From a virus (lineage: Duplodnaviria; Heunggongvirae; Uroviricota; Caudoviricetes): a stretch of DNA of 9,395 bases. The stretch is taken from IMG/VR virus record IMGVR_UViG_2690316166_000023. One strand, 5' to 3'. Made by a program: the position numbers and the translations under genes. Positions 3,000 through 8,862 of the stretch are shown here, piece by piece (the stretch's first letter is position 1; each line of letters starts with the position of its first letter). Below the pieces are notes generated by a model. That model was given only the letters and a program-made list of their open reading frames with translations, was not told where the DNA came from and did not search any database.

Positions 3000-3572
3000 A
3001 TGCTGATTGGGTATATCAGGGTGTCAACAAATGACCAGAATACGGCGCTACAAAGAAATGCGCTGGAATGTGCAGGATGTGAGCTGTTTTTCGAAGACAG
3101 AATAAGCGGTAAGACAAGGGAGCGTCCCGGACTTAAACGCGCATTAAAGCGACTCCGGCCAGGGGATACCCTGCTGGTCTGGAAACTGGATCGCCTTGGA
3201 CGCAGTATGCAGCACCTTGTCCTTTTAACAGAAGAACTCCGGCAACGCGGCGTTAACTTCCGCAGCATTACGGACAATATTGATACATCCACTCCCATGG
3301 GACGTTTCTTTTTCCATATAATGGGCGCGCTGGCGGAAATGGAGCGGGAACTCATTATTGAACGTACACGCGCGGGTCTTGCTGCTGCCCGTGCTCAGGG
3401 GCGTCATGGCGGCAGACCTCAGAAACTGACAGAGAAAGAGCGGGAGCAAATCGCCCGTTTGCTGGCTAATGGCGAGTCCCGTAAACAAATCGCACTGATA
3501 TTTGATATTGGCCTTTCCACCCTTTATCGTTATTTTCCTGCCTCACCAGCTCCGTCACCAAAAGTACCGTGA
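3000..3572 (+). CDS. Serine recombinase: DNA invertase of the Gin/Pin/Hin/Cin family
   Basis: 190-aa ORF, ATG 3000 with AAGGAAA ribosome-binding site upstream. N-terminus MLIGYIRVSTNDQNT (catalytic Ser in RVST), ...GDTLLVWKLDRLGRS..., ...PMGRFFFHIMGALAEMERELIIERT..., C-terminal HTH (...IALIFDIGLSTLYRYF), all hallmark invertase blocks. Adjacent crossover site. Confidence 0.95.
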   Translation: MLIGYIRVSTNDQNTALQRNALECAGCELFFEDRISGKTRERPGLKRALKRLRPGDTLLVWKLDRLGRSMQHLVLLTEELRQRGVNFRSITDNIDTSTPMGRFFFHIMGALAEMERELIIERTRAGLAAARAQGRHGGRPQKLTEKEREQIARLLANGESRKQIALIFDIGLSTLYRYFPASPAPSPKVP

Positions 3573-3657: not shown

Positions 3658-5712
3658 ATGTCAGACTCCAAGTGGAAAATGCTCTCCGCCATGCCCGGAG
3701 AGTTTTCAGTCAAGGTTGCCGGTGGCACGGTGGCATTTATTGAAAGCCCTTTCCGCCCTTCGGGTAATAAAGGGGGGATCACCTTCGCAGACTGCGTGAT
3801 CCGCTTCAGCACGAAAGAGCCATTATGGGTAATGCCGGTATCCGGTAATCCCAGTGCAGAAATCACCAGTTCAGGCGTGACTGGCATCATTCCAATCACA
3901 TCTGACGTGGCCGGAACGCTCACGCCCTCCGACTGGAATGCACCGGATAACGCCGGGCCTTCCGGTAGCACGAATGGCAGCAGTTCAGAGCCGGAATATT
4001 ACTTTGTTGTCATTCTCGCGGGTCAGTCAAATGGCATGGCCTACGGCGAGGGGCTGCCGTTACCGGATTCGTTTGACCGCCCGGACCCACGCATTAAGCA
4101 ACTGGCACGCCGCAGTACGGTAACGCCCAACGGTACGTCGTGTACATACAACGACATCATTCCGGCAGACCACTGCCTGCATGATGTTCAGGATATGAGC
4201 GGGATAAACCACCCGAAAGCTGATCTGGCAAAAGGCCAGTACGGGACTGTCGGTCAGGGGTTGCATATTGCCAAAAAACTGCTTCCCTATATCCCACAGA
4301 ATGCCGGGATACTTCTGGTGCCCTGTTGTCGTGGCGGGTCAGCATTCACCACTGGAGCCGACGGCTCATTCAGTGAGGCCAGCGGTGCTTCCGCTGATTC
4401 TTCACGCTGGGGGGCCGGTAAACCTCTGTATCAGGACCTGGTAAGCCGCACCAAAGTCGCGCTGGCGAAAAACCCGAAAAACAAACTTCTGGCTGTGGTC
4501 TGGATGCAGGGAGAGGCAGACCTTGCCTCAGGAAGCCAGCAGCATAATAGTTTATTCACGGCCATGGTTCAGCAGTTCAGAACTGACCTGGCTCCGCTTG
4601 CTGCGCAGTGCGTGAGTGGAAATGCCACCACGGTGCCGTGGATTTGCGGTGATACCACGTATTACTGGAAAAACGCTGGCACCGATAAATATGAGGCAGT
4701 ATACGGTGGCTACAAAGGCAAGGAAGCACAGAAAATTTTCTTTGTACCGTTCCTGACGGATGAGAATGGACAGAGCACGCCAACGAATGCTCCGGCGGAA
4801 GACCCGGATATTGTGGCTGTCGGGTATTACGGTGCAGCATCCCGAACCCAGGGCAGTTTTGTTTCGACACAGCGTGACAGCCATTTCAGCTCATGGGCAC
4901 GCAGGGGCGTCATTTCAGACCGTCTGGCCTCAGCTATTATGCTCCATGCAGGGCGCACGGCTGAACTGATGCGCGGGCAGACCGTGACACCACCGGATGA
5001 GAAGCCGTCACCTGATACACCATCAAAACCGTCCACGCCACCCGCAGACACCACGACGATGAGTACGCTATTTGCTTACCGGGCATCTGAGTCTGAAGGA
5101 CGGTTGACACCACAGGGTTGGGCTGCCGGAGGTGGCAAGGCTCAAATCGTGGATGATGCCGGAGCCAGCGGGGGTAAGGCAATGAAACTGACCAAGGAAA
5201 CAGGAAGAGCCCTCTGGTACCTTGAGCATGATGCTGGTAATGGTGCGGACCTGCTGGGTAAAGGTGGTCTTGTCAGTTGTCGTTTTAAACTCGATGGCGC
5301 GCTTACGGCTAATCAGTACGCACTGGCGCTGTACTGGCCGGTTTCTGCCCTGCCGCAAGGGGTTACTCTGGAAGGAAATGCCGGTCATAACCTGCTGGCA
5401 TCGTTCTACGTACAGAGCGATGCCACAGACCTTAACGTGATGTATCACAAAGGAAACACGGCGCAGAACACGAAGCTGGGGTCATTCGGCGCATTTAATA
5501 ACGAATGGCATACGCTGGGCTTCCGTTTTGCCGGTAACAACAGTATTGAGGTGACGCCGGTCATTGATGGTAAGGACGGGACACCATTCATGCTGTCGCA
5601 GTCTCCGGTCGGCACGTTTACGGCAGACAAGTTGCGCGTGACCGATATCACTAAAAATGCGACTTACCCGGTACTGATTGACAGTATCGTGGTGGAAGTG
5701 AATAACGCGTAA
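3658..5712 (+). CDS. SGNH/SASA-family carbohydrate O-acetylesterase, three-part architecture resembling prophage NanS-p sialate O-acetylesterases
   Basis: 684-aa ORF. SGNH blocks visible: block I VILAGQSNGMAYGEG (catalytic Ser), block II CCRGGSAF, block III WMQGEADL, block V RDSHFS (Asp/His). Preceded by a ~110-aa S/T/G-rich N-terminal region and followed by a Pro/Thr-rich linker (TPPDEKPSPDTPSKPSTPPADTTT, about nt 4980-5060) and a ~220-aa C-terminal domain. Weak ribosome-binding site. The enzyme class is well supported; the sialate substrate is inferred. Confidence 0.8.
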   Translation: MSDSKWKMLSAMPGEFSVKVAGGTVAFIESPFRPSGNKGGITFADCVIRFSTKEPLWVMPVSGNPSAEITSSGVTGIIPITSDVAGTLTPSDWNAPDNAGPSGSTNGSSSEPEYYFVVILAGQSNGMAYGEGLPLPDSFDRPDPRIKQLARRSTVTPNGTSCTYNDIIPADHCLHDVQDMSGINHPKADLAKGQYGTVGQGLHIAKKLLPYIPQNAGILLVPCCRGGSAFTTGADGSFSEASGASADSSRWGAGKPLYQDLVSRTKVALAKNPKNKLLAVVWMQGEADLASGSQQHNSLFTAMVQQFRTDLAPLAAQCVSGNATTVPWICGDTTYYWKNAGTDKYEAVYGGYKGKEAQKIFFVPFLTDENGQSTPTNAPAEDPDIVAVGYYGAASRTQGSFVSTQRDSHFSSWARRGVISDRLASAIMLHAGRTAELMRGQTVTPPDEKPSPDTPSKPSTPPADTTTMSTLFAYRASESEGRLTPQGWAAGGGKAQIVDDAGASGGKAMKLTKETGRALWYLEHDAGNGADLLGKGGLVSCRFKLDGALTANQYALALYWPVSALPQGVTLEGNAGHNLLASFYVQSDATDLNVMYHKGNTAQNTKLGSFGAFNNEWHTLGFRFAGNNSIEVTPVIDGKDGTPFMLSQSPVGTFTADKLRVTDITKNATYPVLIDSIVVEVNNA

Positions 5713-5761: not shown

Positions 5762-5856
5762 AAAAGATCGTTATATCCAAAGCAAAAAATGCAGTGCACC
5801 TTTTTACCTAACAGATATTACCGGTGTCAACACCATGTCAATAATTGGGAGGGATA

Positions 5857-6039
5857 ATGACATTTTTACAGCTTATTTTATTGTATTTCTGCACGGCAGT
5901 ATGTGCGTTATATCTGGTGAGTGGTGGTTATAAGGCCATCAGAAATTATGTTCGCCGCAAAATTGAGGACGCAGCAGCTGAAAAACTCAGTAAAACAGCG
6001 CAGGTAACTCCGCTCCCAAAAGACCCGACCCAGCCCTGA
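5857..6039 (+). CDS. Small hypothetical membrane protein (60 aa): one N-terminal hydrophobic helix and a basic tail
   Basis: ATG 5857 four nt after GGGAGGG (5847-5853); MTFLQLILLYFCTAVCALYLVSGGYKAIRNYVRRKIEDAAAEKL... The ORF-track start at 5845 is a TTG with no ribosome-binding site. No family recognised. Confidence 0.5.
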   Translation: MTFLQLILLYFCTAVCALYLVSGGYKAIRNYVRRKIEDAAAEKLSKTAQVTPLPKDPTQP

Positions 6040-6074: not shown

Positions 6075-6329
6075 ATGCCAGAAATTAAAGGCACCGTCAC
6101 TGAAGACCTGGTAAAACAGGCACTGTATTCCGGTGAAGTAAATAAGTTGCTGAAAGCGCAGGTCCGCAAGGATTTTGAGGCACAAATCGACACTTACGTT
6201 GATGAAGTGCTGGCAAAACTTATTGGGCCAGCAGTTGCGGCCAGTGATGCTGATAATGAGCCGAAAACCGACGCGCAGCCAGAGCAACCAGACCCGGCTC
6301 AGCCCGGAACTGACAGTACCATGATGTAA
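6075..6329 (+). CDS. Small hypothetical acidic protein (84 aa): helical N-terminus and an Asp/Glu/Pro/Gln-rich, probably disordered, C-terminus
   Basis: ATG 6075 with near-consensus ribosome-binding site AAGGAGG (6062-6068, 6-nt spacer); 35 nt downstream of the previous ORF on the same strand, so probably one operon. No family recognised. Confidence 0.6.
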   Translation: MPEIKGTVTEDLVKQALYSGEVNKLLKAQVRKDFEAQIDTYVDEVLAKLIGPAVAASDADNEPKTDAQPEQPDPAQPGTDSTMM

Positions 6330-6496: not shown

Positions 6497-6790
6497 TTAG
6501 TCCGATTCACGCTTTTGTAGAATCGTTCCCAGAATGCTATACAGCTCATTAGCCTGTTGCTCCATCATTGAGACGGAGGCTATACGGTGCAAAGTGATTT
6601 CAGGAGGTGGCACACCTCCATCTTCTTGCTGTGGAGGAAAAACATAAGATTTAATAAAAAAGTTGAAGCATATGAACTCTCCCGCACTCGAACTGTATTT
6701 GCAGGCATCTGAATAATCGGAAAAATAATCATTATAGATTTCCGCATTTTCAATCATTTTTCGATTTCTCGTCGTTACATGATTGTCCAT
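6497..6790 (-). CDS. Hypothetical protein (97 aa), AT-rich, transcribed divergently from com-mom
   Basis: Minus-strand ATG at 6790-6788 with AAGAGG 5 nt upstream (complement of about 6796-6801). MDNHVTTRNRKMIENAEIYNDYFSDYSDACKYSS...; no family recognised. Composition appears more AT-rich than the flanking genes. Confidence 0.55.
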   Translation of the reverse strand: MDNHVTTRNRKMIENAEIYNDYFSDYSDACKYSSSAGEFICFNFFIKSYVFPPQQEDGGVPPPEITLHRIASVSMMEQQANELYSILGTILQKRESD

Positions 6791-6978
6791 AGCAGCCTCT
6801 TACGCTGGCAATTAACCAATTGACTTCTATAAATTAGTTGATTTGTTTGCTTTGCGGTATTCAAATGTACAATCATTCAGCACTTATGCGTTACAGCACC
6901 GTTTAAAATTAGTGATCAAACTCATAAATTTTCGCTAATGACATTTCGTGTTATTTGTTGTATCAATTAAATAAATCA

Positions 6979-7003
6979 AATCGATCGTTTTTGTCGATCG
7001 ATT
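6979..7003. promoter_or_regulatory. Palindromic operator-like element with two Dam (GATC) sites upstream of com-mom
   Basis: AATCGATCG-tttttgt-CGATCGATT: 9-bp arms in perfect inverted repeat, GATC at 6984-6987 and 6996-6999, a third GATC at 6914-6917. About 45-65 bp upstream of the com start. Mu mom is known to be controlled through clustered GATC sites whose methylation blocks OxyR binding. Confidence 0.45.
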
Positions 7004-7046
7004 GAGTGATAAAGATATCAACAACAAAGCAGGAGGTTATGCGGCC

Positions 7047-7247
7047 ATGTATCGAAACATACGGTGCCGACATTGTAACAAGCTACTGGCACGAGCCAGC
7101 TTCAGTTATCTGGAAGTTAAATGTCCGCGCTGTAAAACCCTCAATCAAATCACATCTCAGAGCGCCACAGAGCACCCCACATACACAAGGAAATCCTGTC
7201 GTGGGGAACAGAAAGCAAGTTACATCCCGTATCATCAGCACGCCTGA
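7047..7247 (+). CDS. com: Com-like zinc-finger translational activator
   Basis: 66-aa ORF, ATG 7047 ten nt after AGGAGG (7031-7036). [30 protein letters not shown]... has the Cys-X2-Cys...Cys-X2-Cys pattern and aligns block-wise with Mu Com as I recall it (MKSIRCKNCNKLL...IEIRCPRCK...). Its 3' end overlaps the following mom-like frame. The ORF-track start at 7002 is a TTG extension. Confidence 0.8.
7175..7206 (+). promoter_or_regulatory. RNA hairpin that would sequester the putative mom GTG start codon and its ribosome-binding site (candidate Com-responsive translational switch)
   Basis: CCCCAC (7175-7180) is the exact complement of GTGGGG (7201-7206); the 20-nt loop holds AAGGAAA; the GTG at 7201-7203 is in the mom frame and inside the 3' arm. 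It lies inside the 3' end of com, the arrangement known for Mu. Confidence 0.4.
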
Positions 7248-7938
7248 ACTTATTCACTATAACGACAATATCGTCGGTTATGGCTCCCGTGAGTTACGGG
7301 TTGAGACAATAAGTTGCTGGCTGGCCCGGCTGGTCGTCGTCAATAAACATTACAGCCATCGTTTCGTAAATAATTCCTACCTTCATCTGGGCATATTTTC
7401 AGAACGGGAGCTGGTTGGCGTAATGCAATGGGGTTATGCCCTTAATCCAAACAATGGTGCACGCGTCGTAACTGGCACGCAGAACCGCGAATATATGGAG
7501 CTTAACCGGTTATGGCTGCATGACTGTATGCCGAGAAACTCCGAATCAAGGGCAATCAGTTACGCGCTCAAACTAATCAGACAACTTTATCCGCAGGTGC
7601 AGTGGGTTCAGTCGTTTGCAGATGAGCGTTGTGGCTGTCTTGGTGTCGTGTACCAGGCAAGCAATTTTGATTATGTAGGCAGTCATGAAACAACATTCTA
7701 TGAACTTGATGGCGAGTGGTATCACGAGATTTGCAAGAATGCAATCAAACGAGGAGGACAGCGAGGTGAACATCTGCGGGCTAATATCGACAGAGCCAGT
7801 GTTCATAAATTCCGTCAGTTTCGTTACATCCGGTTTCTGGACAAGAGAGCCAGAAAACGCCTTAACACAAAGCTATTCAAAGTCCAGCCTTACCCAAAAC
7901 CACAAACAGTTAAAACTGGTTTGAAAGAGAGTGAATGA
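7201..7938 (+). CDS. mom: Mom-like DNA modification protein (adenine-modifying, acyltransferase-like); start uncertain: GTG 7201 proposed, maximal ORF begins at 7006
   Basis: Long ORF ending at 7938 that overlaps com in another frame, which is the signature com-mom arrangement. GTG 7201 has AAGGA 8 nt upstream and sits in the hairpin, giving 245 aa (Mu Mom is about 230 aa). Assignment rests on context; I cannot recall Mom sequence well enough to align it. Confidence 0.6.
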
Positions 7939-7995
7939 ACGCTTAAAAACTCATTCTAAAACTCAAAAGAAAAGCGCCGATTTAGTATCAAATAA

Positions 7996-8862
<867 letters not shown>

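Follow-up and report, generated by a model that had tools for sequence, protein, structure and literature searches.

The com-mom locus in a Mu-like prophage

The window analysed here, a stretch of 9,395 nt, carries at positions 6800-8027 the right end of a Mu-like prophage, in which two overlapping genes lie on the plus strand. The first, com (7047-7247), encodes a 66-aa CCCC zinc ribbon protein with cysteines at positions 7, 10, 27 and 30, and the second, mom (7201-7938), encodes 245 aa when read from the GTG at 7201. Both gene identities were already part of the original prediction, which had been made from the DNA letters of the window, and the Pfam matches agree with them (Zn_ribbon_Com, 7.5e-13; Mom, PF25680, 7.8e-78, with the Mom domain beginning at residue 31). 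Read from this GTG, mom begins inside the 3' end of com in a different frame, giving an overlap of 47 nt; the com stop codon occupies 7245-7247, and com ends 41 nt past the mom GTG. Mom, an adenine hypermodification enzyme that depends on glycyl-tRNA, shields phage DNA from restriction (PMC13219725, PMC7261163) and is cytotoxic (PMC3378877, PMC7261163). In Mu, Com acts as a translational activator that binds mRNA and without which mom is not translated (PMC6483171, PMC3378877).

Copies of the stretch 6800-8027 with 100% identity were found in several complete E. coli chromosomes, and of 5,426 complete E. coli genomes 226 carried the prophage with a coverage of at least 80%, the flanking genes varying by genome. 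It is an E. coli lineage separate from the Mu-type phages; compared with Mu, its Mom is ~78% identical at the protein level and the DNA ~72% identical over mom. At 8025-8862 the right end of the prophage (...GCGGTATCA) is joined to a gene fragment encoding the last 264 residues of a glycoside hydrolase of family 1 that is phospho-beta-glucosidase-like, and since this glycoside hydrolase gene is truncated at the prophage end, the insertion lies inside a host gene. Elsewhere in E. coli, identical prophage ends adjoin other truncated genes, namely those for a PLP-dependent enzyme and a diguanylate cyclase, as well as citF. Different truncated genes at the prophage ends are the pattern expected of Mu-like transposition.

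Whereas gin is directly followed by com in Mu, the present prophage has ~3.4 kb of additional genes between the two. The gin-like serine invertase gene (3000-3572) is followed by a gene (3658-5712) whose 684-aa product combines a SASA carbohydrate-esterase domain with DUF6645, by the coding regions for DUF1378 (5845-6039) and DUF826 (6075-6329) and, on the minus strand, by a 97-aa ORF without a Pfam match (6497-6790). Four runs of N (487-665, 708-1838, 1859-2357 and 2447-2799) mask most of what lies upstream of the invertase, and the ORFs listed within 487-2799 are therefore artefacts.

A palindrome, AATCGATCG-N7-CGATCGATT, with overlapping GATC (Dam) sites is located at 6979-7003. This GATC-rich element is conserved in the region on which Dam and OxyR act in Mu, upstream of Pmom. 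From the palindrome to the com ATG the distance is ~45 nt, compared with ~75 nt in Mu; the spacer is ~30 nt shorter here, which makes the fit for a C-type activator and a promoter uncertain. A promoter scan of the plus strand detected no sigma-70 consensus promoter upstream of com, as would be expected of an activator-dependent promoter like Pmom.

Between 7006 and 7450 the mom frame offers only four start codons, GTG 7006, ATG 7039, GTG 7201 and ATG 7423. The original prediction regarded GTG 7201 as the only plausible in-frame one near the end of com, placing the start much later than that of the maximal ORF opening at 7006, and on both points the comparative data concur. In RefSeq, identical prophage copies are annotated with com at 7047-7247 (WP_014334043.1) and with mom at 7201-7938 and a GTG start (WP_000528246.1). 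The GTG is invariant in 14 of 14 distinct enterobacterial com-mom junctions, which constitute our alignment A2. In locus L049 a TGA stands in frame two codons ahead of the GTG, which is therefore the sole possible mom start there. Upstream of the GTG the reading frame is closed (Mu, L049) or unconserved in other relatives, and residues S9 and R10 of Mom, numbered from the GTG, are invariant. Taken as a whole, this is strong comparative evidence that Mom comprises the 245 aa from GTG 7201 and not the 310 aa of the maximal ORF, and it would fix the annotated start of a toxic gene. The RefSeq record of Mu (L001, NC_000929.1, 428-460) lets mom begin at ATG 428, 10 codons upstream of the GTG, which results in 241 aa, whereas the literature places the Mu mom start at the GUG within the stem described below (PMC6483171). 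We therefore flag this record, whose ATG start for mom is without literature support; ATG 428 also has no counterpart in the lineage of the present prophage.

RNA structure at the mom start codon

The exact pairing of CCCCAC (7175-7180) with GUGGGG (7201-7206) that had been proposed from the sequence was recovered: all six pairs are Watson-Crick pairs (five G-C and one A-U), and they enclose a 20-nt loop (7181-7200). Following the terminology used for Mu, we refer to this hairpin as the translation-inhibition structure (TIS). Its 5' arm lies inside the com codons His43-Pro44-Thr45, and its 3' arm consists of the mom start codon and the next three nucleotides, GGG. When the region 7160-7220 was folded, a check that accompanied the proposal, the stem was present in both the MFE and the centroid structure of the 61-nt RNA (-14.3 kcal/mol, z = -1.81). 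The same was true for the 32-nt hairpin folded by itself (-11.5 kcal/mol, z = -2.07, 10 of 200 shuffles being as good) and for a 131-nt fold, for which z was only -0.34. Within four transcript contexts, 221-511 nt in length, all six stem pairs had p = 0.68-1.0, and the probability of the GUG being unpaired was at most 0.02. The outer stem by itself contributes -8.5 of the -11.5 kcal/mol of the hairpin.

A Shine-Dalgarno-like AAGGA is located at 7187-7191, 9 nt before GTG 7201. It indeed lies between the two arms, as originally described, but it is not free in the loop. A predicted inner helix (ACA.GG / CC.UGU, 7185-7199) pairs the Shine-Dalgarno guanines, G7189 with C7196 and G7190 with C7195 (p = 0.97 for both), the remaining three pairs of this helix having p = 0.28-0.58. 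Because the inner helix engages these guanines, the mom ribosome-binding site is sequestered at two levels. Opening it was calculated to cost 14.4-17.0 kcal/mol, compared with 8.9-10.2 kcal/mol for the com site, and after in-silico mutation of the 5' arm the cost drops to 6.8-9.0 kcal/mol. Thus, the stem is not thermodynamically negligible; a negligible stem had been named as an outcome that would count against its role.

Hairpins of this kind are not rare. Perfect 6-bp hairpins whose loops measure 3-24 nt occur 75 times in the unmasked 7.2 kb of the window, and a 32-nt MFE at or below -11.5 kcal/mol is reached at 37 sites, which puts the present one in the top 3%. The hairpin alone is within the chance range; the case for it rests on position, homology and conservation. 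Reading the structure as an intrinsic terminator was considered and rejected: the stem is followed by AACAGAAAGC, and the terminator scan was blank there on the plus strand.

Directly 5' of the stem lies the predicted Com recognition sequence, GAGCGCCACAGAGCACC (7160-7176, plus strand). SELEX and footprinting experiments with Mu Com have defined the motifs that it binds, among them a bipartite GAG(N)2CC motif and CC(N)2-3GAG (PMC6483171). The two GAG(N)2CC units of the bipartite motif both occur in GAGCGCCACAGAGCACC, and the predicted site is in the same register as GAAUGCCUGCGAGCAUCC of Mu. Within it, nucleotides 7162-7175 form the predicted Com-binding hairpin, hp1 (GCGC / CACAGA / GCAC), in which CC-ACA-GAG at 7165-7172 fits CC(N)2-3GAG and C7165-G7172 is the closing pair of the hexaloop. 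The last nucleotide of hp1, C7175, is common with the TIS. The interval of 7175-7206 given in the original prediction includes the stem, but the predicted Com site lies 5' of the stem and mostly outside that interval.

The second pair of hp1 is a C7163.A7174 mismatch, unlike in 24 of 27 relatives, and it leaves the hairpin thermodynamically marginal. We obtained -0.5 to +0.6 kcal/mol for hp1, compared with -1.7 kcal/mol in Mu and -3.3 kcal/mol in the viral-contig copy L008. These values were calculated with the mismatch open; a value of -1.9, obtained when C.A was scored as a pair, is not meaningful and was discarded. L008 carries a U at the position equivalent to 7163 (1163 in L008), so that a U-A pair replaces C.A. 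This U was the only substitution in the span 7160-7206 among ~30 sampled copies that are 96-100% identical in Mom.

Conservation, covariation and taxonomic spread

For comparison, 80 viral and 57 genomic loci with Mom relatives were fetched, and 141 sequences were analysed, including Mu, two E. coli RefSeq copies and the present stretch itself. A Com ORF ending shortly past the mom start was detected in 84 of the 141 loci, and manual translation revealed that L112 and L120 encode Com as well. Within alignment A2 the five core pairs of the TIS were paired in 100% of the cells, the one change being a C-to-U wobble substitution in L040. Core pairs without variation give no covariation signal, and the overlapping codons (Com His-Pro-Thr, Mom Val-Gly) constrain them too. 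The outermost TIS pair varied, with C-G in seven junctions, U-A in six and U-G in one; between the C7175 column and its hp1 partner the corresponding pairs were G-C in seven, A-U in six and G-U in one. As judged from these alignment columns, C7175 could join either hp1 or the TIS, which fits a mutually exclusive switch; the covariation of the outermost pair essentially separates two clades and reflects few independent events.

Third codon positions of com behaved differently in stems and loops: in the stems they were invariant or covarying (A2 columns 18 and 21), whereas in the loops they varied freely (columns 12 and 24). The inter-arm loop of the TIS ranged from 11 to 20 nt across A2 and was variable in sequence, while the stem was kept. 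Over 27 distinct sequences 97.2% of the hp1 cells were paired, and double changes occurred in all four pairs. Unpaired cells were confined to the present prophage and to L029 and L030, its two nearest divergent relatives, which share the C.A mismatch; both of the latter also possess the GG-CC pairing seen in the inner helix.

A covariance model, R1, was built from A2, with the present junction among the training sequences. Searched against the 9,395-nt window, it gave a single match on the plus strand at 7158-7211, spanning the Com-binding hairpin and the TIS (52.4 bits, E 3e-21), the runner-up scoring 4.9 bits. Beyond the training set, R1 matched com-mom junctions from Pseudomonas, Rhodospirillaceae and Desulfovibrio with 14-22 bits (E 2e-3 to 6e-7). 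These distant matches rest mainly on the Com hairpin, and all of them are in loci that encode Com; Mom loci lacking com gave no R1 match. An Rfam scan of 6800-8100 (E <= 10) returned only chance-level matches well below the gathering scores, and the RNA element thus appears to be uncatalogued in Rfam.

Other clades apparently bury the Shine-Dalgarno sequence or the start codon with different sequences. In L116, L086 and L033, GUCUCCGA pairs with UCGGAGAC over the Shine-Dalgarno sequence. In Desulfovibrio and Pseudomonas loci the AUG or GUG is in the 3' arm of a long hairpin, the 5' arm of which includes the Com loop. The probability of the mom start being unpaired was below 0.2 in 78% of com-linked junctions and in 41% of com-less ones, a comparison based on heuristic start choices and phylogenetically related samples, and its p-value should accordingly be read with caution. 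The Com loop of the distant clades (GCCAU) and their start (AUGGC) can pair in 88% of the cells, compared with 13-38% in slid controls. However, covariation between the Com loop and the start in these clades was no better than in shuffles, and RNAalifold kept only the Com hairpin. The long-range pairing of Com loop and start in the distant clades is therefore suggestive only.

Probable control of mom by Com: comparison with Mu and alternatives

The short hairpin bound by Com in Mu is closed by a C-G pair, carries CC(N)2-3GAG as its loop motif and includes a GA that is critical (PMC6483171). The TIS adjoins this hairpin and contains the mom GUG in its stem, and Com binding destabilises the TIS; TIS melting itself was not observed in that study, in which a truncated Com was used (PMC6483171). 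Written in the same register, the Mu element reads AUGC-CUGCGA-GCAU-CCCAC-GGAGAAACAUU-GUGGGA and the present one GCGC-CACAGA-GCAC-CCCAC-(20 nt)-GUGGGG. The hairpin had been put forward as the counterpart of the Mu structure, and its column-for-column alignment with the UCCCAC...GUGGGA stem around the Mu GTG substantiates this. Shared with Mu are the gene pair and its overlap, the stem core CCCAC/GUGGG containing the GUG, and a Com hairpin that immediately precedes the stem, shows CC(N)3GAG as its loop motif and C-G as its closing pair, and has one nucleotide in common with the TIS. The genomes of D108, SfMu, the Yersinia vB_YpM phages and other Mu-like prophages all have com-mom with a CCCAC/GUGGG stem and a Com hairpin of the Mu type.

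The two elements also differ. The TIS loop has 20 nt and an inner helix here but 11 nt in Mu, the hairpin energy is -11.5 compared with -8.7 kcal/mol, and the outermost TIS pair is C-G instead of U-A. In Mu the Shine-Dalgarno sequence is a GGAG 7 nt before the GTG, the GG of which pairs with UU. A second CC(N)3GAG copy, which overlaps the TIS in Mu (CCACGGAG), is absent from the present prophage.

Very probably, then, the hairpin is the TIS of the com-mom operon in this Mu-like E. coli prophage, homologous to the Mu TIS and part of a mechanism in which the stem is opened by Com. The analysis shows its structure and stability, its homology with the Mu element, how it is conserved and covaries, and where the start codon is placed; Com binding at 7160-7176 and the opening of the stem by Com are inferred from Mu. 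In the com-mom mRNA, the stem 7175-7180/7201-7206 would bury the mom GUG and the inner helix would tie up both Shine-Dalgarno guanines, blocking the access of the 30S subunit to mom. With GUG and Shine-Dalgarno sequence buried, ribosomes would therefore translate com from its start at 7047 but not mom. Com, a small zinc-ribbon protein produced from the same mRNA, would then bind the adjacent hairpin and motif at 7160-7176. The last nucleotide of hp1, C7175, is also the first nucleotide of the TIS stem. Com binding would destabilise the TIS and expose the Shine-Dalgarno sequence and the GUG, and the toxic DNA-modifying Mom would be made late in lytic growth.

The main rival is translational coupling in cis, in which ribosomes moving along com unwind 7175-7206, and mom would need the translation of com but not the binding of Com. 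This is compatible with the position of the whole hairpin inside the com frame, the end of com being only those 41 nt past the GTG, and with the finding that com ends 4-58 nt past the position aligned with the first Mom residue in most of the 84 com-linked loci. Coupling alone, however, leaves unexplained why a conserved and covarying Com hairpin with its motif is located next to the stem, and Com provided in trans was reportedly sufficient in the work of Wulczyn et al. from 1989. As an alternative to Com control it is also at odds with the role of Mu Com as an mRNA-binding activator that mom translation requires (PMC6483171, PMC3378877). We consider it improbable as the explanation of the hairpin, although it may coexist with the Com mechanism.

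Somewhat less probable still is that the complementarity is a by-product of overlapping coding and Mu ancestry, without a regulatory role in this prophage. The invariance of the core pairs, the arms of which encode Com His-Pro-Thr and Mom Val-Gly, would be in line with such a view, and so would the frequency of 6-bp hairpins in the 9,395-nt stretch. Coding constraint does not readily account for synonymous positions that are fixed or covarying in the stem while neighbouring ones in the loop vary, nor for a stem that is kept while the loop between its arms changes in length (11-20 nt) and sequence; moreover, other clades, e.g. L116, L086 and L033, bury the Shine-Dalgarno sequence or the start with quite different sequences. 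The hairpin would be irrelevant if Mom started at ATG 7039, which would yield a 299-aa product read through com in the other frame, or at ATG 7423. The reading frame of mom has no stop from 7006 onwards, and AGGAGG (7031-7036) precedes ATG 7039, but at a distance of only 2 nt, and Mu and L049 have a closed frame upstream of the GTG, which elsewhere is unconserved. ATG 7423 falls on Mom residue 75, deep within the Pfam domain, which begins at residue 31. With S9 and R10 from the GTG invariant and 7201 being the RefSeq start, a start at either ATG is highly improbable, the least probable of the explanations considered here.

Read as a Com-opened TIS, the element extends the established picture of Mu and does not change it; the mechanism is a known one, and the element is orthologous in a distinct lineage. 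The sequence elements suggest that the Mu switch, in which a protein opens a hairpin, has been kept in a common E. coli prophage lineage, and the gating of Mom expression matters for using or detecting Mom. The Com-binding hairpin also accompanies com-mom across distant bacterial phyla, and the element appears to have no listing in Rfam. Tentatively, and with slightly more doubt than confidence, a wider reading can be proposed, in which the Com hairpin and an adjoining structure burying the start or Shine-Dalgarno sequence form a widespread, uncatalogued protein-responsive RNA switch that is found with com-mom from Enterobacteriaceae to Pseudomonas, Rhodospirillaceae and Desulfovibrio. In its enterobacterial form C7175 may be a toggle nucleotide that covaries with G7162 of the Com hairpin and with G7206 of the TIS. 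The present lineage may be a variant of this switch in which the TIS has two tiers and the Com hairpin is weakened by its mismatch, which, if true, would imply tighter repression or a changed requirement for Com.

An analogy with HIV Tat-TAR was drawn by the authors of the Mu study (PMC6483171). In both systems a small viral protein, zinc-binding or disordered, recognises a hairpin whose hexaloop resembles CC(N)2-3GAG and is closed by a C-G pair, and expression is thereby activated. Tat-TAR, however, acts on eukaryotic transcription elongation and not on ribosome access, and there is no homology between the systems.

Mom homologues with ~67-70% identity were also detected in the middle of 40-50 kb contigs of phages of the Yersinia, Serratia and Sphingomonas types (L050-L083, L094-L098). 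These loci contain neither a com gene nor a match to the RNA model, and the Mom homologues they encode must therefore be under different control. The com-less loci of the Yersinia type nevertheless have a paired ATG as their predicted start. The present prophage has two copies of CCAC, at 7165-7168 in the loop of the Com hairpin and at 7177-7180 in the TIS 5' arm, each a possible partner of GUGG of the start (7201-7204). This twofold CCAC echoes the distant clades, where complementarity to the start codon resides in the Com loop itself.
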